Shown here: positions 8,566 through 62,035 of the stretch, one piece after another | How positions within the stretch are numbered: the first letter of the stretch is position 1 | Layout: every line of letters starts with the position of its first letter | Source of the DNA: a virus | Taxonomy: Duplodnaviria > Caudoviricetes | IMG/VR virus record: IMGVR_UViG_3300032030_000076 | Coordinates: 3,038 to 67,037 of that record | Strand: one strand, 5' to 3' | Length of the DNA stretch: 64,000 nucleotides | Made by a program: the position numbers and the translations under genes | Notes under the pieces: generated by a model | Seen by the model: the letters and a program-made list of their open reading frames with translations, nothing else | What the model was told of the DNA's origin: nothing | Database searches by the model: none

Positions 8566-8607
8566 CTTGGATTCCTTTCAGTCCGCCCCCGCGAGGGAAT
8601 GGTCGCG

Positions 8608-9480: not shown

Positions 9481-9521
9481 GTGCTTCCTTTCGCCTTATG
9501 AGCCGGATGCCAGTCCGGGAT

Positions 9522-9869
9522 TCATAACGGGGGTCGGCTGCCGGTACCTCCGGGATAGCCGCCTCCAATTTCGGGCGTCAGTCCCGCCCCTGGCGCCGCG
9601 CCCCCGCCGAAGGGGGTTCCGTCGGCTAACGGAAGCCCTCCGTAGGGATGCTCGCCAAAGCAGGCCAACACCCATTCGATCTCCTCCGCCTTTCCGACAG
9701 CGCGGTTAAGCTGCGCCGCATCGGTGCTCGGAATGAGAAAATGCCTGATTTCCGCGAGGCGCGAAAGGAGCGCCCAGCGGATTATGTCGAAGTCCTGATG
9801 CGCGGCGACCTCGCGAAACGCCTTCGCCGAATTCTCCGCGTTGAACCGCTTTGGCGAGAACTCCTTCAT
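9522..9869 (-). CDS. Hypothetical head-module protein (115 aa)
   Basis: Coupled (ATGA) to the portal gene; conserved position between portal and scaffold. Confidence 0.6.
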   Translation of the reverse strand: MKEFSPKRFNAENSAKAFREVAAHQDFDIIRWALLSRLAEIRHFLIPSTDAAQLNRAVGKAEEIEWVLACFGEHPYGGLPLADGTPFGGGAAPGAGLTPEIGGGYPGGTGSRPPL

Positions 9870-44855: not shown

Positions 44856-46052
44856 TTATTCTGTCGGCATGATCGCGAAGTACGCTTCGCCATCTGCCTT
44901 GCTCGCAAGCCCGCAGTAGTTGTCGGCCCTCATCTTTTCGCTCGTACCTACCATCGCCGTCGTCTTCGCAGGATCGCCGTACGCCGCGACGTGGTACGTG
45001 ATGAACGTATGCCTCCCGCAGTTCTGGAACACGGGAATCCCTTTCAGCCTCGCGGCGTGGTAGATTTCCTTCTGCGTGTCATTCGATATGTCTTCAAGAG
45101 CCTTGTGGAAGTCGAACGACTTCATCCAGGCAAGCGCCGTCGGATGTATGTGAAACGCCCTCGGCCTCTTGCCCTGCTGGAATCCCTTCGCCTTCGCGAT
45201 CCTGATCGTCGCGCCGTCGAGGTCGATCTTCGCGGCGTCGGGATCGGATGCCATTCGCAAGATCTCGACCGCACGGCATCCGCAAAAGAACGATACGATT
45301 GCGTATGCGAGCAGTTCCGGCCTGTCGGCCTTGTGGGCTTCGAGCAGACGGAACAGCTTCTCGACGTCATCCGGCTTCATGTAGTCTGGCTCCTCCCACG
45401 GCTCAGGCTTGAACTTCATCGAGCGAATTGGATTCTTTGCGAGATATTCGCGCTCTTCCTTGCAGCACCAGTTTAGGAACGTCTTGATGTAGAGAAGGTG
45501 CGAGTTGTACGTCTTTGGCTTCTTGTCTGCGTAACCGGCGTCAAGGTAGTCTGCAATCTCCTTAGCGCTGATCGACGCGAGCGTCCTGTCGCCGAGCGAC
45601 CTTGCCCACTTCCCCGTGGTTGCGTTAGTCTTGTCCTTGTCGGCGCCTTCGTTCTTTGCGTCGTAGTATTCCTCGTATGCCTCTGCTACCTTCTTGTCTC
45701 CTTCTGATGAAGGCCGACGCTCTTCTTTCGCCTTGACGTAAGCGTTAGCAACGTCATAGAGCGTGACGCTGATTCCTGCCGACGCGAGCAGGTCAAGCGC
45801 GTTCTTCGCGTCAAGCGCCTGCAACGCGTTGAGTCTGACTGCCGCGTCGCCTCCCGCGCTGTGACGCTGGTAGAAGTCGCGGATTGCCGCCATCATGTCA
45901 TCCTTCGTTTTTCTGGAAATCCGAACGGGCTTCCGTTCAAACGGGTCGATTCCAAAATATGCCTCGTAGTCGCGATGCAACTTCCCGAATCGTTGCTTCC
46001 TGATTCTGACTTTGATGTTTTCCTCGACCGTGCTCTTTGGTAGGTATGCCAT
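44856..46052 (-). CDS. int: Tyrosine recombinase / phage integrase (398 aa)
   Basis: FCGCRAVEI (R), AKAK (K), GRHTF (RH) and C-terminal NY catalytic Tyr region. Confidence 0.9.
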   Translation of the reverse strand: MAYLPKSTVEENIKVRIRKQRFGKLHRDYEAYFGIDPFERKPVRISRKTKDDMMAAIRDFYQRHSAGGDAAVRLNALQALDAKNALDLLASAGISVTLYDVANAYVKAKEERRPSSEGDKKVAEAYEEYYDAKNEGADKDKTNATTGKWARSLGDRTLASISAKEIADYLDAGYADKKPKTYNSHLLYIKTFLNWCCKEEREYLAKNPIRSMKFKPEPWEEPDYMKPDDVEKLFRLLEAHKADRPELLAYAIVSFFCGCRAVEILRMASDPDAAKIDLDGATIRIAKAKGFQQGKRPRAFHIHPTALAWMKSFDFHKALEDISNDTQKEIYHAARLKGIPVFQNCGRHTFITYHVAAYGDPAKTTAMVGTSEKMRADNYCGLASKADGEAYFAIMPTE

Positions 46053-46483: not shown

Positions 46484-49400
46484 CTATTCACCGAGGATTC
46501 GCAACACCTGCGCTTGCAAGCGCAACCGTTCCTTGCGATGGCTGTCGCGTTGCTTCTTGCCTATCGGCATCTTCGGCTCGACCCACTTCTTCCCGCTCTT
46601 GATCTCGCCGCGCTCCAGATGCGTAAGTTCCTTGATGCGGTCGACGAGCTTATCCACTCGGCCTTTTTCTGCCGTAAGGTACGGACGCGCGCGCTTCAGC
46701 TCGCGTCGGCGCCCGGCGTCTTTCGTGCCCTTGAACTCCGCCTTGTCCTTCTCGTAGCCGTCCAGCGCGTCGAAGTAGCGCGAGGTGGACTCTGGATATT
46801 CGCGGACAAGGCGGCGCACAATCGGCATGTCAGTCAGAAGCCTGTCCGTGTCGCCTCCCTTCGCGGCATGGTAAAGGTTCTGTACAGTGGAATACGCGTT
46901 CCCGACGTCTCTTCCGAACCCGCCCCAGATGAACTCCCACACGAGCTGTGCGTCCTCCGGCGCGATGTCGATCTTTCCCTTGCGCAAGCTGTTGCCGCCG
47001 GAAAGGGCGTTGACCGCCTGCGTCAGCTTCTGGTACGGCCACGGCGTGTTGCGCTTCCCGTTCCACGACTTCGGCGCGTTCTTGTCGAACGACAGCTTCA
47101 CGCGCTCGTCGCCCTTGTAGTTCTTTCCGCTCGCAAGCTGGATGATCGGGTCGATCGCTGACGGCGCGACGGACTGCCCGAGCAAGTTCCAGTCCAGCTC
47201 GCCCTTGTCGTTTATCATCCCGTTGCCGCCGACGAGATCGGTTATCTGGTCGGTCAGCTCGCGCGGCAGGGCGGCCAGCGCGTCCTCCGGCTTCGTCTCG
47301 CCGAGGATCACGTTCGTCGCGGTCTGCGCGAGGTACGGAAGCGCGGCATACGGGCCACGGAACCGCAGCAGGGGCATCTGGCGTCCCCAACCGACGGGAA
47401 TGCCGACGTTGTGCTTCTTGTCGTATTCGCTCATGTTGCGCGCGTTGCGCCCGCCCTTGCGCTCGCGGTCGTCGTCGTTGCCGCCGAAGTGGTCGATGAC
47501 AGCCTTCGCGGCGCCGATGCCGACGAGCAGCGCGATGAAGTCGCCGCGCATCTTGTGCCTGCCCCAGCCGCTTCCGTCGTCTGGAAGGTCCTGCACGGAT
47601 TCCTTGCCCGCCTGCACCGCGCGCGCCGCGCCCTGCACCGACGCGTTCGCGAACATGTACAGTCCGTTGACGATGGGCATGAACGACCCCTTGCGGTTGA
47701 AGTCCACGGTCGCCTCGCGGGCGAACTTGACGGCCTCGTTGACCGGCACTCCCTTGTTGTGGATGGCGGAGAACAGCCCGATGCGCGTGGAATACTCCAT
47801 GAACTCGTTCGCCGCCGCGATGAAGTCCTTGCCGCTCTCCCACGCCCACTTCGCCTTGTCTCCGGCTGACATCTTCCAGAAGCTTTCCGCGCTGCGGCGG
47901 AGCTTGTCGAGCCGCAGGCGCACGTCCTGCTCATTGCCCTCGAAGCCCGCCGACGCGACGCCGCCCTTCGTGAGCAGTCCAGCCTTGATGGCCTTCTTCA
48001 CGTCGCCTCGCAGCTCGCCGCGCCGCACGTACCGCCACACGTCCTTCGCGTTGCGTATCTCCGCCGCGACCGCCTTCGCGAACGCCGTAGCGCCGTCCCA
48101 CACGCCGTACCGGCCCATGAGCGCCTGCGCGGCCTCAAGGCTGTCGGCGATGTAGTTGCTGACAGAGAACTCCGGCGAGTATTGCGTGCGCATCGCGCTC
48201 ATCCAGTGCGTGACGGCTGGCACCTTGGAGAGAATGCCGTCGCCCCACGTCTCCACGTTGTCGCCCTTGAACGACCTCATGAAGTCGCGCCCTCGCCCGT
48301 TTACGCCCTTGTCGACGCGGATGGCGTAGAGCTTGCCGTCGCGCTTGAAGAGCTGGATGTCCTCGCGCTCGTCCGCCATCTGCATCCCGGCGTTGGCCTT
48401 CACCTTGTCCGCGTCGCTGAACGTGAACACGTAGTCCGAGCCGTGGTGCGCCTCGTCGATGCCCTCGACGATCTCGCCGATGTGCAGGCCCTGCGCCTCC
48501 GCCCATTCGACGAGGTTCGCGAGGACGTTCGCCGTCTCGTTGCGGATGGATCCGCGTATGCCCTGCTCCGCCTGCAAGAGCGACGCCGCGACCGGCGAGT
48601 CCGCGATGTCCGCCGTCCCGCGCCCGAACGCCTTCATGAACTCGCTGCGCCTCGGGCCTGCGGTCGAGGAGTTGAGGAGCCCCGGCTCAAGCTGCTCCAC
48701 GTCCGTCTTGAGCGGAACGTAGTTGCTCCATTGGTAGAGGTAGTAGTTCGCCTCGGAAGGGGAGAGCTTGCCGGATTCGAGGCGGCGGCGGATGTCGTCG
48801 CGGTTGATGTCGACGAGCGCGCGCTGGGCGTTCTTCATGTGGCGGAACCTGGCGCGGCCGTACTTGGCCTCAAGCTCGGCGATGATGTCGTTGGCGACGT
48901 TCGCGGAAAGCCCGACGCGCGCGCCGTTGCGCACGATCTCGCCCATTCCGTAGGAATAGTCGTCGTCCGGCGTGACGCCGTTGCGCCGCGCAATCGTGTC
49001 GTTGCGTTCCTTCGCGTGCTTGCATTGCGCGTAGAGATCGAGGTCTTGCAGCAGCTCCTCGGACGACTGGCCGTCGAGCCTCGCGCCGTTGAGGGCGCGC
49101 GCCATCGTGTCGACCTTGCGCTGCAACCCGCGTGTCTCGTGCTCCACGCGCCCGTTCGCCTTCTGCAACGCGGCGGCGACGTCGGTCGATTTCGTCCAGT
49201 CCGTGTAGCCGTCGGACGCGCGAATCTCCTCCTTCACGCCGGGAATCTCGTCCTGCACGTCCTTGATCGGCGCGTGGCTGTCGAGGAAGTGTTCGCGCGC
49301 CTTCTCGGTGCCGGTGCGCACGTCGTCCATGATGTTGGAGCCAGCGGGCGCGGGCGCGCGGGCCGTGCGGACGGAGGTCGCCTCCGGCTCGAGTTCGGAC

Positions 49401-52400
49401 GCTCCGCCAGCTCCATCACTAGTTTCAAGAAGGCCGAGCGTCCTGCCCTCCGCCATCGTCCTGTCAAGAAACTCGTTGAACTGCTCCGGCGTCATCCTGT
49501 CGATGCCCGACAAATCTGCGCGGTTAAGGCCCATCCGCGCAAGCAGGCCCTTCCACGCGGCCTTGATCGCGTCCCACGCGCGGTTGTACCACTGCCGTCC
49601 CTGCAATGTCTTGACGAAATCCTTCAGCACGGGCGACTCGCGCCCCTCGCGGATCGCGGCCCATATCTCGTCGCGGAGCGTCGCCTCGTCCGCGCCGGGG
49701 TAGCGGCTCTTCACGTTGTCCACGAGCGCCTGCGGCGCGCTGTCGATGATCGCGTTGATCCTGTCGAGAAGGGCGCGGTTGCCGCGCGCGGCCTCCTGCT
49801 CCGCGAAGCGCAGCGTCGCGTGACCGCCAAGCTCGTGGTCGAGCGTCTTCCAGTTCGCGCCGCGAAAGAGGGTCAGCTCGCCCGTCGCGCGGTTGAAGGT
49901 ACCGAGGACGCGGCCGCCGCCGTCAGAAAGTTGCCTCGCGCCCTCGCCGCCGTCCCTCGCGGGGTCGAACGCCCTGTCCTTGACCGACACCTTCAGCCCC
50001 GGCAGCATCCTCTTCGCGACGGACGCGAGCCACGTCGCGACCTTCAGCTCGTACCGCTGGCGCAACGGCTCCGCGTCCTTCGCCTTGCGTTGCTTGAGCC
50101 ACCGCTGGTAGTCTGCGTCGGCGGCGAAGCGCGCGGCGCGCGCGGCGGGGGATTCCTGCTCTACAATGCGGCTTGCGCGGATGTTCACCTCGTCCACATC
50201 CATTCCGTTCGCCTTGTCCTCCGCACGGCCTCTGCGCACCGCCTCTCGCTCCGCCGCAGTCAGCGTCCTCTTCATTCCTGACGCCGCGATGTCTCTTGTC
50301 TGCACCGTTATGTTCTCCACCTTCGGGGGAATGTACGGCACCCTGTTCGCCGTGCGCCGCTGGACGGTCGCCGTGCCGTCGCCGTTGTCCTTCACGAACG
50401 TGACCGCGCCGTACTGGCCGTCCGCGCCGCGAAGCATCACCGTGTCGCCGCGCTTGAACGTGGATGGGGATTGCGCGACGGCGGATTGCGCGGAAACAGA
50501 CCGCGCATCTTCGCTTGTCGCCTGCGGGGCGACATCGGCAGACTGGCGCTTTACGCCGACAATATCCTTGCGCGGGAAAGTCAACTCCGCGTCACCGCCC
50601 ATCCCGCCTCTTGACAATATCTTTACGTTCTTTGGCCCAACGCTTATTACCTCGCCCTCGTAAAGCATTGTGTTTCTGTCGTTCTTGATCGCGACAACAG
50701 CGCCCTTGACGACATTGCCTTTTGACGGACTGGCGAATCCGTCCATCTCGGTCCTTCGCCCGTTCAAGTCTGTCCATGTCGAGTTTTCCGCCGATTCCGT
50801 GGCCTGCGCCGCTTCAGCGCCGTCCGCCGTCTCGGTTGCCCGCGTTTCGTCCTGTGCGCTTGCAGACGCGGTTTCGCGCATCTGTGACGGGCTTGCCGCC
50901 TCGTGCCTCTTCTCGAAGTCCGTTACGGCCCTGTACGCCTTGCCGCCGTCGTCGCCCTCCACGTTCAGCGCGGCGTCGATGAGGTCTGCGTATTCCTTCG
51001 CTTCCGCGTCCGTGAGCCTGTCCGCCCACGCGGGAAGCGCCTCGCCGTCGGCCCACTCCGCGTAGACGCTGGCAAGGCGTTCGCGCGCGCCCGGCGCGGC
51101 GTTGCCCGCCTGCGCTCCGCCCTGCTCCGTCTGCCTCTGCGTCCTGCTGAAAAGGTCTTCGCCCTCCGCGCCGCCAAGGTCAAGAAGGGTCTGCCCCGTC
51201 TCGCCCGCGCTTCCGCGAAGTTCCGCTTCCTGACGCCGCTTGATTTCCTCGCGTTGCGCCTGCATATCCCGCTCACGCTTCAACTGCTCCGGCGTCGCCG
51301 ATTCTAGCGCGAAGTCCGGCGCGGCCTGTTCTCTCCTCGCCTGCTCGTCGGCCTCGCGCGCCTCGGCCTCTATCGCCTCGCGCTCGGCCCTGTCCCATGC
51401 CTCTTCCTGCCGCTCGATCGCCGCGTCCTCCTCAGCCTCGGCATCGCTGGCCGCATCATGTTCAGACGCGCGTCTCGCAAGCTTGTCGTCCGTGTAGGCG
51501 GCGGCTTCCTCGTCGCGCTCCCTTGAAACGGTCTTTTCCTCGCGGGCGGCGTTGCGCTTGTTCGCCGCCCATTCAGCGTATTTCCTGCGCGTCTCCAGAA
51601 ACCAGTTCACGACGGCTTCCGGCCCTTCGCGCTCGATCATGTTCTCGACGTACGCCTGCAAGTCGGACGGCATGTTCTCGGTCAGCGCGTCGTTCGTGCC
51701 GGTTCGCGGCCTCATGCCGAACAGCGAGATGTAGTCGCCGCGACGGTTCTTCCTGGCGTTGCCGTCTAGGAATCCAGCAATCCAGTCGGCAAGCGTGTCT
51801 GCCGCTCCCTTCGGCGGAATCTTCAAAAGTCCGCCGTTGTCACGCGCGAACCGCAGAAGAGCCGCGCCCATCTGGTCGCCCGTGCCGCCGTCGTCTGGAT
51901 GCGCCGCGTAGTCCTCGTAGGAATACCCGCGCAGGTTCTGTCCGCGCCGCGTCTTCGGCCTTACCACTCCCGCAGTCTGCGCTTCTGCTCCCTGCGCCTC
52001 TCCCTGCTCTGGTCGCGGTTCTTCGACCGCTTCCGGTCGCTCCGCTCCCTGTTCGGGTTGCGCTGGTGCTTCAGCGGTTCCATTCCCTGTCTCATCTGGA
52101 TTCTCCTGTATCGATTGTGTCGGTTCCTGTTCGTTCTCTCCGCGATGGCGGAAGTTGACCGCGCCCAAGTTCCGGCGCAGACGGTTCGGCCTGTCTATTG
52201 GCTCGGCAGTCTCTACTTCGTTCTGTACCGGCGCGGGAGATTCCGCAACCTCCTCCGCCGTCTCGCCACGATGCCTGAAGTTCACCGCCGCGAGATTTCG
52301 GCGCAGACGATTCAGACGTTCGACGACAGGCGGCTCCGCCGCCGCTTCCGTCACCGTCTCCGTTTCCGCCCCGTTTTCGCCCTCTGGCGCGTCCGCCGCT

Positions 52401-54202
52401 TCGGGCGTCTCCTCGCCCGCCTCTTCCGATCCGCGCGTTCCTGGGGCTTCCGTGGCGGCTTCCGTGGCGTTCTGCGCCTGCTGTTGCTCCGCCGCCTCGT
52501 CAGCGGACATGAAGTCAGCCGCGCGGTTCTCGCTCGCAACCCGCATCTGTTCCTCCGCCGACGGGTTCTCCGTCCTCGTCCCGCCCTCGTCGAACATCGC
52601 GAGCGCGGCGTCGCGGAAATCGTCTACCTCGCGCTTGCCCTTGGCGATGGTGTCCACGAGGTCGTTGATCGCGTCCGCGCCCTTGCCGATCTTCTTCTTG
52701 ACCTGCTCTTCCGTAAGCCCGTTGACGTACGCGTCGAACGCCGCCCACTTCTCGTCCGCCGTGTAGTCCTTCAGCACGTCCTTGTCGATGCCCGCGCTCT
52801 CCGCGAGGATGTTGTCTATCGGCTTCGACCTGATCCTGTCGCTGACGTGCGCCATGCCGCCGCCGAGAATCTGGATGAGCAGCATCGACTCCGCGAGATT
52901 CTTCAGCGATTCGGGCTTGAAGAACTCCTTCGCCGCTTCTGCGCCACGCCGGAGCGCGTTGCCTTCCTTCTCGCTTTCGCGCCGGTCGATGCCAAGCGCG
53001 GCGTCGAAGATGTTGTCCTCCAGCTCTTCAATCGTCTCCTCCGGCATCCCTTGCAGGCCCGTCGCCTTGCCGAAGCGCCGCATGTTCTTTCCGTACCTCG
53101 ACAGCGCCTTGCCGACAGCCGTCTCCGCAATCTTGTCACCGACCGACTTCACGAGAGGAATCTTGCCGAGCGTCGCTCCGGCGATGCCGCCGAGCGCCTT
53201 CGTCGCGAGCGTGCCGCCGACCAGCTCGATCGCAGGCTCGACGATACCCCGCGCAACGCCCTTCGCGACGGCGGCGCCGGTCGAATCGCGCTGCGCCGCG
53301 ACTCGCACGTTGCCGTCAGCGTCCATCTCGTAGCGGTCGCTCGCCATCTCCTGCCCGCGCTCCGCGCCGCCGATGAGGCCCGCCATCACGCCGTGCGCGC
53401 CTGGAAGCGCGAACGGGATCATGTAGGAGCCGGTCTGCACCAGTCCGCCCACAAGCCCCGCCTGCGCCTGCTTCTCGCGCCCTTGCAGCTCCGCCCGCGC
53501 CGCTTGCTTCTCGCGCTCGTTCTGGAGCGTGATGTCCCGCGCCCTCTCCTGCGCGAAGCGGACGCGCGCCGCCTTGCGCGCCGCCGGATCGGCGATCCTC
53601 GCGCCGTCCGTCCTATCCCACTCCTGCATCACGCCCTCGTCGCTCCTCGCCCACGGGCCGAGGAACCGCTTGAACCACGCGCCCGCGCCGTTCCAGCCAG
53701 CCGCGTCCACGAGATAGTCCAGCTCGCTGTCGGGCAGTTCCGTCAGCGGCACGTCCTTCCCGTCCTTGCGCACCGTCCCGCGCAGGATGTCCTGCAAGTT
53801 CATCTCGACGTTCTTCTCGGCGACCCTGCCGGAAGTATTGTGAGAGACGCCTGCCCACAGGTTCTTCAGCCACGCTGACACGGAGCCGTCCGCGCGATCC
53901 GCGACCGGCGCGCCGCTCGCCTGCGCCTCCAGCGCGACCTTCTCGACGCCGCCCATCGCGTCGTCGCCCGCGAAGTCATCCGGGCGCATCGGCGCGCCCG
54001 CGTTGCCGACATGCTGGCTGTTCGCCGAAATATAGGCATCGAGCTCTTCGTCCGAGAACTTGGAGAAGTCCGGCGACGCGGACTGCCCGGCGACGGCAGG
54101 TTGCGCTGGCACCGCGTCCACAGGTTCGGCCCCGCCCTGCGGACTGTTCGCCGCGATATACGCGTCAAGCTCCTCGTCGGTATACTTGGAAAAGTCTTCC
54201 AT
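46484..54202 (-). CDS. Giant polyvalent ejection/internal virion protein (2572 aa) with metallopeptidase-like and LPD38-like domains
   Basis: GTFNRATGELTLF...DHELGGHATL zincin-like motif; C-terminal AREATVDFNRKG...YMFANASVQG and LPD38-like tail; last gene of the virion operon. Confidence 0.75.
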   Translation of the reverse strand: MEDFSKYTDEELDAYIAANSPQGGAEPVDAVPAQPAVAGQSASPDFSKFSDEELDAYISANSQHVGNAGAPMRPDDFAGDDAMGGVEKVALEAQASGAPVADRADGSVSAWLKNLWAGVSHNTSGRVAEKNVEMNLQDILRGTVRKDGKDVPLTELPDSELDYLVDAAGWNGAGAWFKRFLGPWARSDEGVMQEWDRTDGARIADPAARKAARVRFAQERARDITLQNEREKQAARAELQGREKQAQAGLVGGLVQTGSYMIPFALPGAHGVMAGLIGGAERGQEMASDRYEMDADGNVRVAAQRDSTGAAVAKGVARGIVEPAIELVGGTLATKALGGIAGATLGKIPLVKSVGDKIAETAVGKALSRYGKNMRRFGKATGLQGMPEETIEELEDNIFDAALGIDRRESEKEGNALRRGAEAAKEFFKPESLKNLAESMLLIQILGGGMAHVSDRIRSKPIDNILAESAGIDKDVLKDYTADEKWAAFDAYVNGLTEEQVKKKIGKGADAINDLVDTIAKGKREVDDFRDAALAMFDEGGTRTENPSAEEQMRVASENRAADFMSADEAAEQQQAQNATEAATEAPGTRGSEEAGEETPEAADAPEGENGAETETVTEAAAEPPVVERLNRLRRNLAAVNFRHRGETAEEVAESPAPVQNEVETAEPIDRPNRLRRNLGAVNFRHRGENEQEPTQSIQENPDETGNGTAEAPAQPEQGAERPEAVEEPRPEQGEAQGAEAQTAGVVRPKTRRGQNLRGYSYEDYAAHPDDGGTGDQMGAALLRFARDNGGLLKIPPKGAADTLADWIAGFLDGNARKNRRGDYISLFGMRPRTGTNDALTENMPSDLQAYVENMIEREGPEAVVNWFLETRRKYAEWAANKRNAAREEKTVSRERDEEAAAYTDDKLARRASEHDAASDAEAEEDAAIERQEEAWDRAEREAIEAEAREADEQARREQAAPDFALESATPEQLKRERDMQAQREEIKRRQEAELRGSAGETGQTLLDLGGAEGEDLFSRTQRQTEQGGAQAGNAAPGARERLASVYAEWADGEALPAWADRLTDAEAKEYADLIDAALNVEGDDGGKAYRAVTDFEKRHEAASPSQMRETASASAQDETRATETADGAEAAQATESAENSTWTDLNGRRTEMDGFASPSKGNVVKGAVVAIKNDRNTMLYEGEVISVGPKNVKILSRGGMGGDAELTFPRKDIVGVKRQSADVAPQATSEDARSVSAQSAVAQSPSTFKRGDTVMLRGADGQYGAVTFVKDNGDGTATVQRRTANRVPYIPPKVENITVQTRDIAASGMKRTLTAAEREAVRRGRAEDKANGMDVDEVNIRASRIVEQESPAARAARFAADADYQRWLKQRKAKDAEPLRQRYELKVATWLASVAKRMLPGLKVSVKDRAFDPARDGGEGARQLSDGGGRVLGTFNRATGELTLFRGANWKTLDHELGGHATLRFAEQEAARGNRALLDRINAIIDSAPQALVDNVKSRYPGADEATLRDEIWAAIREGRESPVLKDFVKTLQGRQWYNRAWDAIKAAWKGLLARMGLNRADLSGIDRMTPEQFNEFLDRTMAEGRTLGLLETSDGAGGASELEPEATSVRTARAPAPAGSNIMDDVRTGTEKAREHFLDSHAPIKDVQDEIPGVKEEIRASDGYTDWTKSTDVAAALQKANGRVEHETRGLQRKVDTMARALNGARLDGQSSEELLQDLDLYAQCKHAKERNDTIARRNGVTPDDDYSYGMGEIVRNGARVGLSANVANDIIAELEAKYGRARFRHMKNAQRALVDINRDDIRRRLESGKLSPSEANYYLYQWSNYVPLKTDVEQLEPGLLNSSTAGPRRSEFMKAFGRGTADIADSPVAASLLQAEQGIRGSIRNETANVLANLVEWAEAQGLHIGEIVEGIDEAHHGSDYVFTFSDADKVKANAGMQMADEREDIQLFKRDGKLYAIRVDKGVNGRGRDFMRSFKGDNVETWGDGILSKVPAVTHWMSAMRTQYSPEFSVSNYIADSLEAAQALMGRYGVWDGATAFAKAVAAEIRNAKDVWRYVRRGELRGDVKKAIKAGLLTKGGVASAGFEGNEQDVRLRLDKLRRSAESFWKMSAGDKAKWAWESGKDFIAAANEFMEYSTRIGLFSAIHNKGVPVNEAVKFAREATVDFNRKGSFMPIVNGLYMFANASVQGAARAVQAGKESVQDLPDDGSGWGRHKMRGDFIALLVGIGAAKAVIDHFGGNDDDRERKGGRNARNMSEYDKKHNVGIPVGWGRQMPLLRFRGPYAALPYLAQTATNVILGETKPEDALAALPRELTDQITDLVGGNGMINDKGELDWNLLGQSVAPSAIDPIIQLASGKNYKGDERVKLSFDKNAPKSWNGKRNTPWPYQKLTQAVNALSGGNSLRKGKIDIAPEDAQLVWEFIWGGFGRDVGNAYSTVQNLYHAAKGGDTDRLLTDMPIVRRLVREYPESTSRYFDALDGYEKDKAEFKGTKDAGRRRELKRARPYLTAEKGRVDKLVDRIKELTHLERGEIKSGKKWVEPKMPIGKKQRDSHRKERLRLQAQVLRILGE

Positions 54203-54217
54203 CGTGGATCCTTGTGA

Positions 54218-56539
54218 TTAGTCGTTGCCGAACGGGTACATGGATTTCATTATTCCCATCGACTTCTTTATGGCCTTCTTTTCCTCTTCCGTTGGTTCAG
54301 ACGTAAGGGCGTTCCACGCCTTGTCCATGAACCATGCGGCTATCCTTCCGGCAGTCTCTCCGCCTTTTGCCAATCCGTTCTTGATCGTGGCCCAATGCGC
54401 TGCGTTTCTCTCGTCGACGCCTTTCTGCCACTCCTCGTAATCGCGCTTGCGGCGTTCCGCTGGAGTCAGTTCCGTTGCGGGCTTCGCGACGGGCTTGCGG
54501 AGCTTGGCATTCCGTCCGGAATCGGTCTTGCCGTTTTGCGCCGTGCCGCCGGGTTCCTTGGGAGCGAGGGTTTCGATCTCCTTCTCTAGTTCGGCGTCTG
54601 GATTGACCACGGCATCTATCGCCGCCTGGATGTCGGCCCAATCGTCATCGTCGATAGTGGGCTGCGCCGACGACTCGACCGGCTTCTGCGGAACACTTGC
54701 AACGGGTGTCGCCGCAGTGGCTTTTGCCGCTTGCGCCGCGCCGCCCTGCGCCTGTTGCGTCTGCTGCTGCCTCGCGGCTTCACGCCTCCTGCGCTCCTCG
54801 ACCGCGCGCTGCACGTCCTGCGGCGTCGCCCGTTGCGTGGCTTGCGTCGCCGCGCCGCCCTGCGCCGGTTGCGTTGCGCCCTGCGCGGGGGGCTGGCCGC
54901 CGCCCCGCATCTGCTGGAGAAGCGCGGCGCCGTCATGCGCGGGAGGCTGGCCGTCATTTGCAAACACGCTCTGACCGTTCGCAAGGCGCATCTTAGCGAA
55001 GTCTACCGCCGCTTTCACAATGTCGTTTGGAACAGGCTTGTTGTTCGGAATGATGTCGTTCACCATCAATTCCTGCTGCGCCTTCGTCAGCGTAGGCACA
55101 AGCGTTGGGATGTCAATTTCCTTCCCGTCAAAGTTCACGCCTATCGTGTATTCCGTCGCGACTCCACCATTCGGCAACTTCAGTTCACCAAGCCAACCCG
55201 TGCCCTTGTATGTCTTGCCGTCGTTACGAAGGCCGTACCGCCCAGCCCCGCCCTGCGACCCTTGCGCCTCGGCGGCGGGCTCCGGCCTCGGCATCTCCTC
55301 GTACCGAGTCTCGCCCGTCGCCGCATCGTACCGCGCCGTCATCGGCGTCGCGCCCTGCACATCGTAGCCGTTCGCGTCGTACACCTTGCCGTCGCGAATC
55401 CAGCCGTTTCCGATCACGAGACGCCCGTTCGCGTCCGTATATCGCACGAGCTGCTGCGGCCCGCGCATGTTGTCGGCGCGCCGCTGGTCCTCCACGGCGT
55501 TCTGCCGCTGGCGCTGGGCGATCTCCTGCTCCTCCGGCGAGAGCTTGCGCGGCCCGTAATACTTTTCGAGGAGCGCGTCCGCCGCCGCGAGCCGCGCCTG
55601 CCAATCGTCCTGTCCGCCGTTCCCGCCGCGCGGGCCGAGATAGTGTTCGAGGTAGGCGTCGACGCTCTTCATCACATCATCGTCCGTAGCGGGCTCGTAG
55701 TCCGGGACCTCGTTCCCGTTGTCGTCCGTCGTCATCAGCGGCTTCCCGTCCTCGCCGACCCTCTGCTTGCCGTGGATTCCTGCCCTGAAGTCCTTGTTCG
55801 TGAGAAGCGCCCTCGCCGCCTCCCACCGGGGGTCCCTGCCTTCCTTCATCGCGGACTGCACGACCGTATCGATCATCTTGTCCAGCCCCGCGTTCTTCGC
55901 CTGCGACTGCCGTACCTGCGCCCCCATCGCCACGCCGGAGAAGTCCGGCACGGGAAGTTCGTTCCCGGCGTAGCCGTGCTTGTCCATGAGGGACTGTCGG
56001 AACGCCATCGTGTCCTGCTGATTGAATATCGCCCCTCCGCCGCCGAGCATCATCTGGTACTGCTCGCGCGGCTTGATGACCCTCGGAGTCCTTGTCACGC
56101 CGCCGTTAGGTCCGGCCGATAGCATGTCAATCACGAAATCGCCGTTGGACGTGTAGCCCATTCCGCCTATGGCCTGCGACTTGCCGTCCATTCCAAAGTT
56201 GCGCATCGCGCTGTCCAGCGCGTAGGCCGGGAACCTGCCGCCGTTCTGCTGCGCGATCTTCATCGCGGAAAGGATGGTCGCGTTTCCGAGGTTCGCGTTG
56301 TGCCGCTTCACGGCGGCCGCGCGACGCCCGAGCTGCGCCATGCCGTCGTACACCTGCCGTTGCGAAAGCGCGTCGTCGTAGTCCGCGCCCCACTCCTCGC
56401 GTGCCGTCATCCCTCCGAGGCTCTCCGTCCGAGAGAAGTTTCCTCTCCCGTCCGCAGAGAACGCGCTGATGGACGACCGCCGCCGCGCATATCCGTTAGG
56501 ATCTGTCCCAAAACTGCCTTCATCATCGAAAAGTGCCAT
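54218..56539 (-). CDS. Internal virion/ejection protein (773 aa)
   Basis: Ala/Gln-rich protein upstream of the giant protein. Confidence 0.6.
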   Translation of the reverse strand: MALFDDEGSFGTDPNGYARRRSSISAFSADGRGNFSRTESLGGMTAREEWGADYDDALSQRQVYDGMAQLGRRAAAVKRHNANLGNATILSAMKIAQQNGGRFPAYALDSAMRNFGMDGKSQAIGGMGYTSNGDFVIDMLSAGPNGGVTRTPRVIKPREQYQMMLGGGGAIFNQQDTMAFRQSLMDKHGYAGNELPVPDFSGVAMGAQVRQSQAKNAGLDKMIDTVVQSAMKEGRDPRWEAARALLTNKDFRAGIHGKQRVGEDGKPLMTTDDNGNEVPDYEPATDDDVMKSVDAYLEHYLGPRGGNGGQDDWQARLAAADALLEKYYGPRKLSPEEQEIAQRQRQNAVEDQRRADNMRGPQQLVRYTDANGRLVIGNGWIRDGKVYDANGYDVQGATPMTARYDAATGETRYEEMPRPEPAAEAQGSQGGAGRYGLRNDGKTYKGTGWLGELKLPNGGVATEYTIGVNFDGKEIDIPTLVPTLTKAQQELMVNDIIPNNKPVPNDIVKAAVDFAKMRLANGQSVFANDGQPPAHDGAALLQQMRGGGQPPAQGATQPAQGGAATQATQRATPQDVQRAVEERRRREAARQQQTQQAQGGAAQAAKATAATPVASVPQKPVESSAQPTIDDDDWADIQAAIDAVVNPDAELEKEIETLAPKEPGGTAQNGKTDSGRNAKLRKPVAKPATELTPAERRKRDYEEWQKGVDERNAAHWATIKNGLAKGGETAGRIAAWFMDKAWNALTSEPTEEEKKAIKKSMGIMKSMYPFGND

Positions 56540-56557: not shown

Positions 56558-57559
56558 TTAGGTCCTGAAGAACGTTCCCGTGTCGCGCCAGTTGCCGTGG
56601 TGCGTGTTGTCGATGATGTTCACTCCTCCTCTGCCGCCGTTCATCGCGCCGACGCGCATCTGCTCGGTCGATTGTGTGTTGCGCGCCTCGTTCATCTGCA
56701 CGCCTGCCAGCGAGTCGTATGCGCCTTGCAAGGCCCTGTCGTAGTTCAATCCGAGGCTTCCCGCGCTTCCGTACAATCCTCCTGCCTGTCCAAGCGCACT
56801 CGCCGCTCCCTGCTGCGCGTTTACGCCCTGCGCCCGCGCGGACGTCCCGATGCTCGCGAGTTCGCCGCCCGTCTTCAGGAATGTGTTCGCGTTGTTCGTG
56901 ATGAGGTTCTGGAACATGTTCGCCTGGTCTGTCAACCCGCGCTCCTGCGCACGCGTCATAGCCGCCGCAGACGCCACGGCGCGGAGACGGTCGTACGCCG
57001 ACGCCGTGTTTGCGAACGCGCCGCTCGACGGGTTGACGCCCATTCGCGCAAGCTGGCGTTCCGACTGCGCGCGCGCGTTGTCGAACTGGCTCTGCACGTC
57101 CTGCTTCGCAGACGCAACGTACTTGTCCGGGTCGAACTCGCCGTACAGCTTCAGAGCCTCCGCCACGAGCGGCGACGCCGACGCGTCCATGTTGATGAAG
57201 CCCATCCCCGTGCCGAGCGTGTCGAGAGCCTGTTCCGTGACCCTCGTCCCGCTCTCGAAGAGCGCGTCGCCCTCGCCGCGCATCGTGTCTGCGATCGGGA
57301 TCATCCTGTCCGCCGCCACGCGCATGTCTCCGACCGCGCGGTCTATCGCTGGCCTCCCCGCAAGAATCGCCTGCACGCCGCTCTGCGCGGAGCCTACCGC
57401 ACCTGCCGCCTGTCCGCGCGAGGACGAAATCGCACCGTCGAGCTGCACAAGCGGCTCTCTATCCGCTCCACGTGTCGCGCCAAACGCGCCGCTGTCTCCG
57501 ATTGCCGACCAACCAGACAGCGGGTTGGAAAAAGTGTTCCACCCTTGGAATACTGCCAT
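56558..57559 (-). CDS. Internal virion/ejection protein (333 aa)
   Basis: Ala/Gly/Gln-rich, RQLARMGVNPSSG motif typical of podophage pilot proteins. Confidence 0.6.
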   Translation of the reverse strand: MAVFQGWNTFSNPLSGWSAIGDSGAFGATRGADREPLVQLDGAISSSRGQAAGAVGSAQSGVQAILAGRPAIDRAVGDMRVAADRMIPIADTMRGEGDALFESGTRVTEQALDTLGTGMGFINMDASASPLVAEALKLYGEFDPDKYVASAKQDVQSQFDNARAQSERQLARMGVNPSSGAFANTASAYDRLRAVASAAAMTRAQERGLTDQANMFQNLITNNANTFLKTGGELASIGTSARAQGVNAQQGAASALGQAGGLYGSAGSLGLNYDRALQGAYDSLAGVQMNEARNTQSTEQMRVGAMNGGRGGVNIIDNTHHGNWRDTGTFFRT

Positions 57560-57734: not shown

Positions 57735-59978
57735 TCAGTTCACCTCCGCCATATTTGTCCCGATCAAAATCGCGTCGACTTCCTCGCTCGCCGTCACGGT
57801 AAAGCTCACAAACCTCTCCGGCCTCGTGCGCGGAAGCCTCCGCCCATCCTGCGACCAGATCGTGACAGGCCGCTTGTGTGTCGATTTCGACGCCGCCGTA
57901 GGAGAAGAGAACGTGCCTACAGACAGTTGCAGGCTTCCGTCGCTTCCGTATGCCATCGCGTCCACCCTCGCCGCAACGGGATCGAACGGGCGCGGCATCA
58001 CGAACGTCTTGCTCGTCCATTCCATGTTCTTGTTCTCGTCGCTTCCTTCCCAAAGGCAGATGGCGAACATGTCTTCCTCGAAATGCGCGACAAGAGCCCT
58101 GTCTCGTTGCGCGGAGAACGTGTACGTCGCGTTTGCGCCCTCAACGATCTCCCCGTCCTCGTACCAGCCGACGAAGCGATACCCGTTGAACGACACGGCG
58201 TACACGGTGACAGAATCGTCCTGCGCGTTCGTGACGCTCGTCGTCGTGCGCGAATCGCCTATGTACACAATGCCCTTGTCGCTGTCTTCTTCGCGAACCG
58301 AAACGCTCGTCGTGAACTCGGATGCAGTCCCCCACCTCGCCTTGAACACCCTGTCATGACGCCCGACATTGAGCTTCCGCGTATACGATGCGCCAGAAGG
58401 CTCCGTGACGAGAATCTTCTCGTCGCCGTTCTGAAGCACCTCGACAAGACGGAAGAATTGCAATGCCCCAGGCCCTAACGCGGGAGTCGCAGTCAAGACA
58501 ACATTCGTGGACGCGACGACTCTATACAACTCGCCCGTTCCGCTGCTTACGCCTGTTCCGCTGATCGAAAGTGTCCCAGGAGAACCAGATTCGTCCGGGT
58601 CGTTCTTCTCGCTTAGAAGCCTCACAGCCACAAACGTGGTTTGGTCGGTAAAGACGGCAAGGTAGTCGTGCGACCTGTCTACCGTTACGAGCTGTGAAGA
58701 TTCATAATAGTCATTCTCCTCGCCGTCTACATACCAGCCACCGAAGAACGATTGCGCGGACGCATCAGCAACTATCGTAATCTGACTCCCAAGGACATAT
58801 TCCCTTGACACGCTGTAGTCAGACGAAGGATAGTCGCTTGGATAGGCGTCTCCATTACCGTACTCCGTGTTCTTACGGATGGTCACTGTAGCCTTGTACT
58901 TCGCGACGAGCGACAGGTCTGCCAGAAGTTTCCTCGCATAGCCTGTTCTGGAATCCGAAACTTTCGTGCCGTTCTCGTACCATCCGTCGAACGAGCATCC
59001 GTTTCCGGAAATCGGTTCGGGCGCGACGAACGTCACGATGTCTCCGTAGACCGGATTTTCTATCGCGGAATCGGTCCCGTCCGTCATGCTCGTGTTCGCT
59101 CCTTGAGCTACGGCAACCTTCGATGCGTCGTCTATGCCATGCGTCACGTTGATCGGCTTCAGACCGTATGTCGCCGTCAGCGTCACGTCGTTGTCCGGCA
59201 TGGTGAAAGTCAGCACGCTGTTTTTCCGGTCTGCCTCGTCGATTCCGCCAACCCCGCTGACGTTCCAGGCGATGAACACGATTCCTGTCAGACCAGTCGT
59301 CTGCGCCGTCGCAGTTATTGAAGTGCCAGAAATCGCCGAATTGCTTGAAATGGTTACTGTCGGCGGAGCCGATTGGTATGCGTCGCTCTCGTTTAAGGAA
59401 CTCGGCTTCGCAGGATAGGACGATGACGCGGAGATCGCATGTGTGTATTGATGAGTTTTCCATTGCGCGACTGCCGTCACATTTCCAGTTAAATTATATG
59501 TCGCACCGCTGCCATAGATTACTCCACCTATGTCCCATCCGTCGAAATCGTAACCCTGCAAAGTCGGAATGGTTGTGGTTATTTTTACATTTGGGCCTTC
59601 TCCGTATGTCGACGCAATAGTAGATGAGCTTCCGTGGCTCCCTCCGTTCAAGTCATACTCAATCCTTGGAAGCAATGAAAAGTTTGCGCTATTCGACACA
59701 TTTGTGGATACGTCATCAGATACGACGAACCTGTCAGAAAGTTTCGACCCGCTTTTTACCGTAACATAGCTTGTGCTGCTATTATTGTACCAATATCCGC
59801 TATTTCCAGAATAACTTTCGTTCAGATCCCATCCTGTGAACTTGCTTTTCGTTTTTGGGGAAGCCTTGAACACATGATACCCGCCACCAATATATTCATA
59901 GCTAATACTACCAAGGTCCGAATCGTATGAAATGTCTATTGTTTTGCCTGAACCTGTACTCCAAGACATATCACTCAC
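57735..59978 (-). CDS. InlB-B-repeat adhesin fused to a tail-nozzle C-terminal domain (about 747 aa)
   Basis: Repeated GY/F-x-F-x-GW motifs; last about 110 aa LWEG...WTSKTF...ILIGTNMAEV resemble nozzle C-termini. Start may be ATG 59969. Confidence 0.7.
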   Translation of the reverse strand: MSDMSWSTGSGKTIDISYDSDLGSISYEYIGGGYHVFKASPKTKSKFTGWDLNESYSGNSGYWYNNSSTSYVTVKSGSKLSDRFVVSDDVSTNVSNSANFSLLPRIEYDLNGGSHGSSSTIASTYGEGPNVKITTTIPTLQGYDFDGWDIGGVIYGSGATYNLTGNVTAVAQWKTHQYTHAISASSSYPAKPSSLNESDAYQSAPPTVTISSNSAISGTSITATAQTTGLTGIVFIAWNVSGVGGIDEADRKNSVLTFTMPDNDVTLTATYGLKPINVTHGIDDASKVAVAQGANTSMTDGTDSAIENPVYGDIVTFVAPEPISGNGCSFDGWYENGTKVSDSRTGYARKLLADLSLVAKYKATVTIRKNTEYGNGDAYPSDYPSSDYSVSREYVLGSQITIVADASAQSFFGGWYVDGEENDYYESSQLVTVDRSHDYLAVFTDQTTFVAVRLLSEKNDPDESGSPGTLSISGTGVSSGTGELYRVVASTNVVLTATPALGPGALQFFRLVEVLQNGDEKILVTEPSGASYTRKLNVGRHDRVFKARWGTASEFTTSVSVREEDSDKGIVYIGDSRTTTSVTNAQDDSVTVYAVSFNGYRFVGWYEDGEIVEGANATYTFSAQRDRALVAHFEEDMFAICLWEGSDENKNMEWTSKTFVMPRPFDPVAARVDAMAYGSDGSLQLSVGTFSSPTAASKSTHKRPVTIWSQDGRRLPRTRPERFVSFTVTASEEVDAILIGTNMAEVN

Positions 59979-61419
59979 CTCCTCCCGTAATCATGCCCCT
60001 CACGAAATAGAGCCTGTCGTTCCTGTCGTCACGGCAGAGGCAACGCGCAGGCTCGTCATGCGTCGTGATCGCGTCAGCGCCTTCGGAAAGGTCTATCACA
60101 AGGCCTGGCTTTCTATCCTTTACGTCATTGAAGAACAGGTACAGCGCGCCGTCATGATGCTCCATGACGCACTTCTCTGGATTCTTCGCCTGCCATTGCT
60201 CCTTCGTGAACGCCTTTGATGTGACGTTCACGCACACGGTCCCTGCACTTGCGTCGTTCACGATGGCCATTAGCCCTTCGTGCGACACGAAGTAGACGCT
60301 GTTGCGCAGGACGCACACGCCTCGCGCGCTCAAGCAAGCCGCCGCTCCCGCAAGCTTCGCGACCGTCATGCTCTCCGGCGCGGTCCCGGAAAGAACCCAA
60401 GGATAACCGTCAGTCAGCGCGAACACGCTGTTGCTTGTTGTCGCAAGCGCGACGATGTTGTCCTTCACGTCATAACGGTACGCAATCGGCCAGCTCGTCA
60501 CGGTTCCGATGTCAGAAAACATCACTGTATGCGGAGAACTTCGCGAAAATCCTGCGTAGAATCCGCCTGCGACGAACTGGATTCCGGAAAGGTCTACCGG
60601 CGGAGACTCGATCCCCGGCTCTGCCTCGCCTAGCCTGTCTGGCACAAACGCAGCAGAAAAACCACCCGGCTCCGTCGCCTCGGCCACGGTACGCTCGACA
60701 AAGAATTGGATCCCGTCGGTGTTTTCGGAAGTCCCTGCCGCCGTCGCATACACGTAGATCTTCCGCGCGTCCTGCGGGACATTTTGCATCGCTCCGAACG
60801 AGACAGACATCCCGTTATTGAGCGCGATTGGAGCCGTCTTGCCACCAGTCTTGCTTGGCGCAGAAAGCCCGCTCTCATAACCGTTCGCGTCAACCCATGA
60901 CACGAAAAACTGCACGTAATAGACCGTCTTGCCGTCCGACAATGTTCCAGTTGTAGAAACTGTCGGGGCGTCTAGCACTGTCTTGCAAAAAGTTCTCCTG
61001 AAAATCGCGTTTGACGAACGCGAATAAAAGTACACGGCAGGCGCGTCATATCTGTCAACACCATTCTCATCCGTAAATGTGACGCCAGTCTGTCCTGTCA
61101 CAAAAAGTCTGTCGTAATCGTCGTCCGCGATGTTCCCCTCCGCGAAATCGACTATCCCCGGAAATGCGAGAAAGTCGGTCATCACGGTGCCGTCAGTCTG
61201 CGTGTGCTTCCATGCGTAGAGACTTTTCGCATCAGCGACGGAAGTAAGCCCGTTCTCCATGTGTATCATGATGTCTCTTGCGATTGACGACTTTCTTAGC
61301 GGGACGAGCTTGCCGTTCTTCAGGCGGCAGTTGTGCGCGGTCACGGCCATACCGTCCGCAAGAAGCGTCGGATGCACCCTCGGCTGGATGCCGTGGAAGT
61401 TGTCAACTCGTATGTTCAT
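59971..61419 (-). CDS. Tail nozzle/stabilisation protein (tail tubular B-like), C-terminally truncated (482 aa)
   Basis: NFHGIQPRVHPTLL...NCRL N-terminus, SWPIAY...IVALA...GYPWVLSGTAPESM beta-propeller motifs. Confidence 0.75.
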   Translation of the reverse strand: MNIRVDNFHGIQPRVHPTLLADGMAVTAHNCRLKNGKLVPLRKSSIARDIMIHMENGLTSVADAKSLYAWKHTQTDGTVMTDFLAFPGIVDFAEGNIADDDYDRLFVTGQTGVTFTDENGVDRYDAPAVYFYSRSSNAIFRRTFCKTVLDAPTVSTTGTLSDGKTVYYVQFFVSWVDANGYESGLSAPSKTGGKTAPIALNNGMSVSFGAMQNVPQDARKIYVYATAAGTSENTDGIQFFVERTVAEATEPGGFSAAFVPDRLGEAEPGIESPPVDLSGIQFVAGGFYAGFSRSSPHTVMFSDIGTVTSWPIAYRYDVKDNIVALATTSNSVFALTDGYPWVLSGTAPESMTVAKLAGAAACLSARGVCVLRNSVYFVSHEGLMAIVNDASAGTVCVNVTSKAFTKEQWQAKNPEKCVMEHHDGALYLFFNDVKDRKPGLVIDLSEGADAITTHDEPARCLCRDDRNDRLYFVRGMITGGGE

Positions 61420-61766
61420 AGCTGCATCAAAGTCTCCGCGCGGTTCTTCAACGTCTCAGACACCTGCATGTTCACGGTGTCCGTGATGTCAAGCTCATAG
61501 ACGAGGCTCGCCGCGTACTTCACCACGGCGTCCACGTAACGCGCCTCGTTTATCCGGATGTCCACTCCGGGCGCGACGACGAAGGCTGTCGCGTCAAGCA
61601 GCATGTTCTCGCCGTACTTCTCCGACGGCTGGATCGTGCGAAGATGGCCGACCGCGCTTCGTATGCAGTCGAACACGACTTCCTGCGAGAACCGGTACGC
61701 GTCGCTCTCCGTGTCGTTCACGAGAGTCCGCACCTTAGCCTCCAGCTCTTCGATCTTTATCGTCAT
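61416..61766 (-). CDS. Putative head-tail adaptor (116 aa, start MTIKIEE)
   Basis: VRTLVND...RFS...AVVKYAASLVY pattern; coupled to the nozzle gene. Confidence 0.55.
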   Translation of the reverse strand: MTIKIEELEAKVRTLVNDTESDAYRFSQEVVFDCIRSAVGHLRTIQPSEKYGENMLLDATAFVVAPGVDIRINEARYVDAVVKYAASLVYELDITDTVNMQVSETLKNRAETLMQL

Positions 61767-62035
61767 CTTCGTCCTCCGTCCGTCTGATAGATAGTCTCCC
61801 TGTTTCGGCCTCTCCGAGCGCGGGAGTCTCTCGTCAATGAAGGTCGTTCGCGATACCCGGGCCTGTACCGTGATGCGGGAAAAAGGAGTGGTAAAACCCG
61901 CATCAGGCAAATTCCTACTTCGCGTCCTCGTCCGGAGGCGGCACTGGCGTCGCCGGTATCACGCAACATCCGCGCCTGTCTGCCTCGGCGTAAAGCTCTT
62001 CGAGCCTTTTCTCGTGCTCTTCCTGTGTCATCTGG

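Follow-up and report, generated by a model that had tools for sequence, protein, structure and literature searches.

The window analysed here is a 64,000-nucleotide stretch of the IMG/VR virus record IMGVR_UViG_3300032030_000076. The record comprises 67,037 bp and is rated 100% complete, and the window corresponds to its bases 3038-67037. The virus is an uncultured short-tailed phage (podophage) of gut or rumen. Two adjacent genes in its minus-strand structural gene run are the subject of this analysis. The first encodes a protein of 482 amino acids (aa), here termed nozzle-N, which is related to the tail nozzle protein gp74 of Ralstonia phage GP4 and lacks the C-terminal domain of that fold. 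The second encodes a 744-aa product, here termed the arm protein, in which a long array of InlB-B repeats is followed by a C-terminal module related to the end of intact nozzles. Because nozzle-N is without the C-terminal domain, and the product of the next gene ends with it, the window encodes the nozzle fold on two chains. The features concerned are as follows.

59971-61419, minus strand: nozzle-N gene, 482 aa, a GP4-type nozzle without the C-terminal domain.
59967-59986, minus strand: coupling junction, with GGGAGGAGG (59986-59978) inside the last nozzle-N codons, the stop codon TGA at 59973-59971, one intervening base, and an ATG at 59969-59967.
57735-59969, minus strand: nozzle-arm gene, 744 aa from the ATG at 59969, encoding the InlB-B arm and then the nozzle C-terminal module.
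58068-59912, minus strand: InlB-B / Listeria-Bacteroides repeat arm, as recognised by Pfam and by a family hidden Markov model (HMM).
57738-58079, minus strand: nozzle C-terminal module of ~114 aa, made up of a WEG...W.SK strand segment and then a jelly-roll 'platform' domain, ending in ...GTNMAEVN.
58068-58079, minus strand: an internal ATG (58070-58068) with the sequence GAGGA (58079-58075) four bases upstream.

Nozzle-N matches the PHROG family phrog_511 with an E-value of 2.5e-61 over profile positions 320-754 of 862. This family includes Stx phage phi24B gp57, Klebsiella LASTA gp07 and Pseudomonas Itty13 gp09. The only relative of solved structure that was identified by sequence is the GP4 nozzle gp74 (PDB 8JOV chain A; E 1.9e-22), and BLASTP aligns residues 3-475 of nozzle-N to residues 4-422 of gp74. 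Consistent with the sequence data, an AlphaFold2 model of nozzle-N, built with 21 homologues in the alignment, reached a mean predicted local distance difference test score (pLDDT) of 84.8 and a predicted template modelling score (pTM) of 0.83. The model superimposes on residues 5-423 of 8jov_A with a Z score of 28.9 and a root-mean-square deviation (rmsd) of 3.4 Å over 347 residues. The next structural matches, with Z scores of 18-20, are the nozzles of Pan3, crAss001, P22, Pa223, Sf6, Pam1, SU10 and VP1.

Examination of the matched regions shows that nozzle-N contains the N-terminal platform strands and the beta-propeller with an inserted tip domain, all of the phrog_511 type. The C-terminal jelly-roll (platform) domain is absent from this chain, which stops at the equivalent of GP4 residue 422. 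Indeed, when compared with the single-chain nozzles P22 gp10, Sf6 gp8, VP1 gp16, Pa223 and Pam1, the nozzle-N model ends ~100-125 residues short of the chain end, the aligned spans being 4-357 of 471 residues in P22 gp10, 4-395 of 521 in VP1 and 7-397 of 512 in Pa223. The protein terminates with ...DRLYFVRGMITGGGE*, eight residues beyond the sequence DRLYFVR, and the end of the gene reads ...LYFVRGMITGGGE*. An earlier reading of the window, made from the letters alone and referred to here as the sequence-only reading, had proposed that the nozzle is split and that the 482-aa protein lacks its C-terminal part; the match to 8JOV residues 5-423 bears this out. The nozzle-N homologues P0060, P0078, P0101, P0108 and P0114 (526-551 aa) carry an extra 50-70 aa near residues 160-230, which form the inserted nozzle tip region, and their C-terminal truncation is unchanged.

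The missing segment was located at the far end of the next gene. In intact nozzles (GP4 gp74, LASTA gp07, Itty13 gp09 and three metagenomic nozzles) the sequence after the break continues with the motif I.(E/D)W(E/D)(G/A)...W(R/K)SK.F, and the C-termini follow the pattern ...RLP...E......(I/V)......(M/G).E. In alignment the same motif string is found at the end of the 744-aa arm protein, and MAFFT aligned the region ICLWEGSDENKNMEWTSKTFVMPRP...RRLPRTRPERFVSFTVTASEEVDAILIGTNMAEVN of the arm protein to the C-termini of five intact nozzles. When the last 124 aa of the arm protein were scanned alone they matched phrog_511 positions 758-858 (E 7e-4), a span that directly continues the one covered by nozzle-N. 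Moreover, an hhalign comparison of a profile of 25 modules with a profile of six intact nozzles gave a probability of 97.5% and an E-value of 5.8e-12, with residues 12-125 of the 125-aa piece pairing with GP4 gp74 residues 422-575. The sequence-only reading had already pointed to a W(E/D)G...W.SK segment at the end of the next gene as the continuation of the nozzle. Alignment of both reading frames to intact nozzles agrees with it on the homology and on the placement at the end of the gene; its boundaries require correction, since the segment starts at about 58079 and spans ~114 aa, rather than 57735-58070 and 110 aa.

Detection of this relationship needed profiles. When the arm protein was compared with GP4 gp74 and LASTA gp07 by pairwise BLASTP, the only match was short, weak and collinear (E 0.007), and phmmer of the module against PDB sequences gave no match. 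A tblastn search of the module against 50,697 deposited phage genomes returned nothing at E <= 1, so that at that sensitivity the module was detected in no cultured phage.

The AlphaFold2 model of the C-terminal module has a pLDDT of 78.9, and its residues 30-125 form a confident beta-sandwich. Residues 1-28, which include the WEG segment, are poorly defined (pLDDT below 50 for the WEG segment), and the conserved N-terminal 26 residues of nozzle-N also have pLDDT values below 50 in the isolated model. Low values for these two regions in isolation are expected for strands that need a partner. The best structural match of the module is to 8jov_A residues 434-575, with Z 9.2, an rmsd of 1.6 Å over 85 residues and 22% identity. 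The next five entries are all nozzle C-termini, from Pa223, SU10 (three entries) and VP1, with P22 gp10 and Sf6 gp8 lower. Foldseek alone gave a weak result (E 4e-3), and the model also reaches Z 5-6.4 with many unrelated jelly-rolls, so the structural evidence for the module is supportive and not decisive alone. The predicted nozzle identity of the module is carried by the sequence-profile result. Together, the two pieces cover the GP4 nozzle in 8JOV collinearly and without overlap, as residues 5-423 and 434-575.

The commonness of jelly-roll and carbohydrate-binding module (CBM)-like folds, seen in those generic Z scores and in the weak Foldseek E-values, would suit a different account of the locus, in which the 482-aa protein is a complete short nozzle and the 744-aa protein an independent fibre that happens to carry a generic nozzle-like jelly-roll. 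This account is judged very improbable. The sequence homology is significant and begins exactly where nozzle-N stops, at GP4 residue 422, and the top six structural entries are all nozzle C-terminal domains. In addition, the matched intact solved nozzles retain the jelly-roll that the 482-aa protein lacks, and no second copy of the module was found in the 67-kb genome.

The split is conserved among relatives. A protein search identified at least 119 nozzle-N clusters (455-551 aa, 43-69% identity), and every one of the 119 stops 2-8 aa beyond the motif ...(M/L)Y(F/Y)V(R/K). In the IMG/VR scan a single-protein query recovered two loci and an alignment query recovered eight. Eight distinct related loci have enough downstream DNA (L003-L007, L014, L015 and L019), and in each of them the module forms the end of the gene after nozzle-N, which encodes 683-1465 aa. 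When 1.84 billion representatives were searched exhaustively with a profile, 377 module proteins were returned at E <= 0.001, 116 of them at E <= 1e-30. Among the best 150 of the 377, which reach lengths of up to 2200 aa, the module is at the extreme C-terminus in every case and a nozzle-N part in none, so that no fused single-chain intermediate was found in this set.

The junction between the two genes is compact. It reads ...CTC TAT TTC GTG AGG GGC ATG ATT ACG GGA GGA GGT GAG TGA T ATG TCT TGG..., with a GGAGG sequence eight bases upstream of the ATG at 59969, which itself begins one base past the nozzle-N stop. The spacing of the GGAGG and the position of this ATG directly after the stop identify it as the start of the arm gene (744 aa), rather than the GTG at 59978 that gives the listed length of 747 aa. 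The layout of GGAGG, stop codon (TGA, TAG or TAA), one nucleotide and ATG is kept in 8 of 9 loci, and the cluster representative P0127 is 99.6% identical to the arm protein across all 744 aa. Conservation of both the break and the junction across relatives rules out an assembly error and, together with the use of all three stop codons, makes stop read-through or a conserved frameshift site unlikely.

The same junction bears on the idea that the two reading frames are in truth one gene, joined by a sequencing error or a programmed +1 frameshift into a 1226-aa nozzle with a large insertion. The frames are one base apart, and a Shine-Dalgarno (SD)-like GGAGG precedes an in-frame TGA in a manner superficially similar to the prfB frameshift site. 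However, the break is kept in the 119 homologues and the eight loci with any of the three stop codons, and in 8 of 9 loci it is followed by an ATG correctly spaced from the SD sequence. There is no conserved slippery codon, the P-site codon here (GAG) cannot re-pair in +1, and none of the 150 module proteins described above contains a nozzle-N part. A single frameshifted gene can hardly be credited on this evidence.

The remainder of the arm protein is built of InlB-B repeats. Pfam identifies Flg_new_2 (PF18998, divergent InlB B-repeat; E 5.7e-19, 68.3 bits against a cut-off of 23.6) and Flg_new (PF09479, Listeria-Bacteroides repeat; E 1e-12, 48.4 bits against a cut-off of 27), both of which exceed the Pfam gathering thresholds. 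A family-iterated HMM resolved six repeats, at residues 20-97, 116-173, 206-269, 305-361, 385-444 and 575-634, and the 130-aa gap at residues 445-574 probably holds one further divergent repeat, in keeping with the six or seven InlB-B-like repeats counted in the sequence-only reading. The nearest Atlas clusters to the arm are bacterial and some viral proteins of the same repeat class. That reading had also raised the prospect of different inserts at this site in relatives. In a sample of 48 module proteins, InlB-B repeats were detected in 45 (Flg_new_2 in 45 and Flg_new in 43), and no other Pfam family was detected at E <= 0.001. The number of repeats, between 1 and 16, rises with protein length (r 0.87). 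Since the relatives carry the same repeat type in varying number, the payloads do not differ in kind.

The arm evolves far faster than the parts of the nozzle on either side of it. Across the eight loci, nozzle-N averages 55% pairwise identity and the module 49%, whereas the arm averages 23%, and in the closest pair (L003 and L004) the corresponding identities are 89%, 86% and 47%. The least conserved part of the arm is its N-terminal 100 residues. Distances for nozzle-N and the module correlate with r 0.86, which is expected for linked genes and by itself is no proof of contact. The GC content over 59350-59950, the first 600 bases of the arm gene, is 0.41-0.50 compared with ~0.6 around it and in the genome, and the tip-encoding 5' part of the gene may have been acquired or exchanged recently. 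A conserved virion-attachment end combined with a fast-changing distal end is the usual pattern of host-recognition fibres. Here the polarity is reversed relative to usual fibres, with the anchor at the C-terminus. The domain type and the evolutionary rate together suggest that the arm may be an adhesin.

Some observations weigh against an adhesive role. Bacterial InlB-B repeats are often spacers beside CBMs, BACON, SLH or peptidase domains (Atlas), neither Pfam nor the family HMM revealed a distinct head domain in the arm, and a separate 746-aa tailspike-like gene (1185-3425) could encode the main receptor-binding protein. Because InlB-B repeats usually accompany other functional domains, as they commonly do in bacterial surface proteins, a pure stalk role for the arm is conceivable: the nozzle would still be made of two chains, but the arm would be a passive stalk or 'rope' on which other tail proteins, for example the 746-aa tailspike, are docked or by which they are spaced. 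A parallel exists in the Pseudomonas aeruginosa podophage A1002, whose gp39 carries eleven docked fibre dimers on its long N-terminal part (PMC13730344). However, the small fibre genes that lie between the nozzle genes of A1002 and KPP25 are absent here, and a GP4 gp80-like fibre subunit was not found in the genome, which is a weak negative. Moreover, the arm diverges far faster than the rest of the nozzle (23% against 49-55% identity) and most of all in its N-terminal 100 residues, which is typical of a host-contact part. A passive stalk is considered unlikely, although less so than either of the other alternatives weighed above.

The sequence-only reading had further suggested that the internal Met codon at 58070, with its upstream GAGGA, might allow an adhesin-free version of the module. 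This suggestion is not supported. The Met is present in none of 24 aligned relatives, being unique to this phage among the 25, and the GAGGA merely encodes Glu-Glu codons; the internal Met is therefore judged incidental. Short module-bearing proteins in the databases are mostly not arm-free forms either. The contigs that encode them usually measure only 0.5-1.3 kb, and at 90% identity the short proteins cluster with long members, so most of them are fragments. Two proteins from longer contigs are exceptions: P0261 (139 aa) is encoded on a contig of 43.6 kb and P0160 (182 aa) on one of 9.6 kb.

The homology and collinearity with a solved nozzle, the conserved break, the pairing of the two genes and the difference in evolutionary rate fit an arrangement that we consider likely: a hexameric nozzle made of two polypeptides from coupled genes, in which the last ~114 aa of the arm protein plug into nozzle-N and the InlB-B arms serve as lateral fibres. 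Translational coupling would give equal amounts of both chains. Nozzle-N would provide the propeller and tip, and the strand segment and jelly-roll platform at the end of the arm protein would pack against the propeller and the conserved N-terminal strands of nozzle-N, restoring a fold that is a single chain in GP4-type phages. Physical complementation of this kind is predicted from the homology and from the A1002 precedent. The sequence-only reading had envisaged a propeller completed in trans. Of the two outcomes named as able to refute that reading, neither occurred, since the last 114 aa are homologous to nozzle C-termini and the 482-aa protein is without the C-terminal jelly-roll of the matched intact nozzles. 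The collinear pieces favour completion in trans, but the part supplied is mainly the jelly-roll plus the short WEG...W.SK segment, with little of the propeller.

On the same model, six arms would emerge from the nozzle at its top rim, close to the adaptor that is the usual docking place of lateral fibres, and because the plug is the C-terminus the arm N-termini should point outwards. Each arm would consist of six or seven InlB-B repeat domains strung together flexibly. The arms are most likely lateral fibres for a first, reversible contact with glycans of the host surface or its surroundings, and their length and tip would vary fast between relatives. We infer the 6:6 stoichiometry, the outward orientation and the binding function from this model.

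The two genes belong to a minus-strand structural run of ORFs of 164, 482, 747 (as listed), 333, 773 and 2572 aa. The neighbouring features, together with the tailspike-like gene, are as follows.

61416-61910, minus strand: 164-aa ORF, a member of the structural run.
56558-57559, minus strand: 333-aa ORF, Ala/Gly/Gln-rich, matching PHROG 8003 'virion structural protein' (E 7.6e-11).
54218-56539, minus strand: 773-aa ORF, Ala/Gly/Gln-rich, between the arm gene and the giant ORF.
46484-54202, minus strand: 2572-aa ORF, downstream of the ejection-type genes.
44856-46052, minus strand: tyrosine integrase (phrog_1, E 8e-25), adjoining the structural block.
1185-3425, minus strand: tailspike-like ORF, 746 aa, of which residues ~47-112 match the N-terminal part of tailspike PHROGs.

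The 333-aa and 773-aa ORFs occupy the place of the ejection (internal core) proteins in a T7-like gene order. The C-terminal 900 aa of the 2572-aa ORF match PHROGs 14770 (E 1e-59) and 616 (E 2e-31), and giant genes at the same place carry the annotation DarB-like antirestriction protein in GP4 and LASTA; the 2572-aa product is probably a virion protein of giant size, internal or ejected. The presence of the tyrosine integrase indicates that this GP4-like podophage is temperate. Many tailspike PHROGs have a conserved N-terminal part that is matched by residues ~47-112 of the 746-aa ORF (best E 1.4e-10). With this separate tailspike, host contact probably involves two kinds of protein in this phage. 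Bins of rumen and gut Kiritimatiellae, Lentisphaerae and Verrucomicrobiota genomes contain relatives of the phage, and the hosts are probably Lentisphaerae- or Kiritimatiellae-type bacteria of these habitats.

Lateral fibres of short-tailed phages, including those of canonical podophages, are normally separate proteins docked by their N-termini. In the arrangement proposed here, unlike in those phages, the fibre would be anchored by being part of the nozzle fold, with its polarity reversed. The closest precedent in design is the split nozzle of A1002, a KPP25-like phage, which has been described by cryo-electron microscopy (PLoS Biol, 3 November 2026; PMC13730344). There, the truncated nozzle-base gp42 (398 aa) relies for its completion on 152 residues at the C-terminus of the nozzle-rope gp39 (620 aa), comprising propeller-C (residues 469-519) and platform-C (520-620) (PMC13730344). 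The two systems share a truncated nozzle-base encoded upstream of a second protein whose C-terminus holds the missing propeller and platform parts, a break at the equivalent topological place, and a second protein whose long N-terminal part runs outwards. The C-terminal anchor polarity is also common to both, as presumably is the six-fold symmetry. Unlike in A1002, where two fibre genes separate the pieces, the genes here are directly coupled with none between them, and the arm consists of globular InlB-B repeats rather than a rope with docked dimers.

In KPP25 (AB910393, L023), ORF008, ORF007, ORF006 and ORF005 at 7852-11869 encode 398, 171, 147 and 620 aa in the same order, sizes identical to those of A1002 gp42, gp41, gp40 and gp39. 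These genes are annotated only as 'structural protein' or, for ORF007, 'hypothetical protein'. Because the sizes are equal, the published split nozzle is probably common to the genus Kochitakasuvirus. Sequence kinship between that split and the one described here was considered and set aside, as hhalign gave probabilities of only 0.3% against KPP25 ORF008 and 0.1% against ORF005 and so detected no kinship, with the sensitivity limited by single-sequence templates. Both pieces here are relatives of single-chain GP4-type nozzles, and the split therefore probably arose separately at the equivalent seam. It looks like an independent variant of the A1002 design, unrelated to it by sequence, which suggests that such a split arose more than once.

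A broader reading, offered only tentatively, is that the seam before the platform domain is a recurrent breakpoint, cut independently in GP4-type, KPP25/A1002-type and other lineages. The freed ~114-aa domain might then be a portable plug that can mount any N-terminal payload six-fold, in this case InlB-B arms of 1-16 repeats with a length tuned to the thickness of the host surface layer. If this were correct, the module would be a natural transferable handle for retargeting short-tailed phages. Independently of that reading, the compact domain pair is a candidate natural protein-protein plug. A design known from one solved cultured phage appears to be widespread in uncultured phages, in a large clade (at least 119 clusters for nozzle-N and 377 for module-bearing proteins) that is linked to little-studied bacteria of the Planctomycetes-Verrucomicrobia-Chlamydiae (PVC) group in rumen and gut. 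Putative trans-completion of a nozzle can be detected without a structure, from the sequences themselves, and this supplies an annotation rule for genes now named, for example, 'hypothetical' or 'repeat protein'.

By sequence and fold, the closest relative of both pieces is GP4 gp74 (577 aa, 8JOV) with the phrog_511 family, and GP4-type phages also share the ejection-type proteins and the giant DarB-like protein downstream. The article PMC11784390 does not mention GP4 gp74 and provided no domain boundaries. Unlike the pieces described here, the GP4-type nozzles are single chains (GP4 gp74, LASTA gp07 at 582 aa and Itty13 gp09 at 583 aa), whereas in the window the first chain breaks off after the residue corresponding to position 422 of GP4 gp74 and ~630 aa of repeats precede the C-terminal piece. 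The combination of propeller and C-terminal jelly-roll is common to the nozzles or hubs T7 gp12, P22 gp10, Sf6 gp8 and VP1 gp16 and those of Pa223 and SU10, all of which, again unlike the present case, are single chains. Finally, the arm has the same repeat type as the InlB B-repeat and Listeria-Bacteroides proteins (PF09479, PF18998, TIGR02543). Those are mostly bacterial surface proteins with wall or membrane anchors and other domains, whereas here the anchor is a phage nozzle domain.

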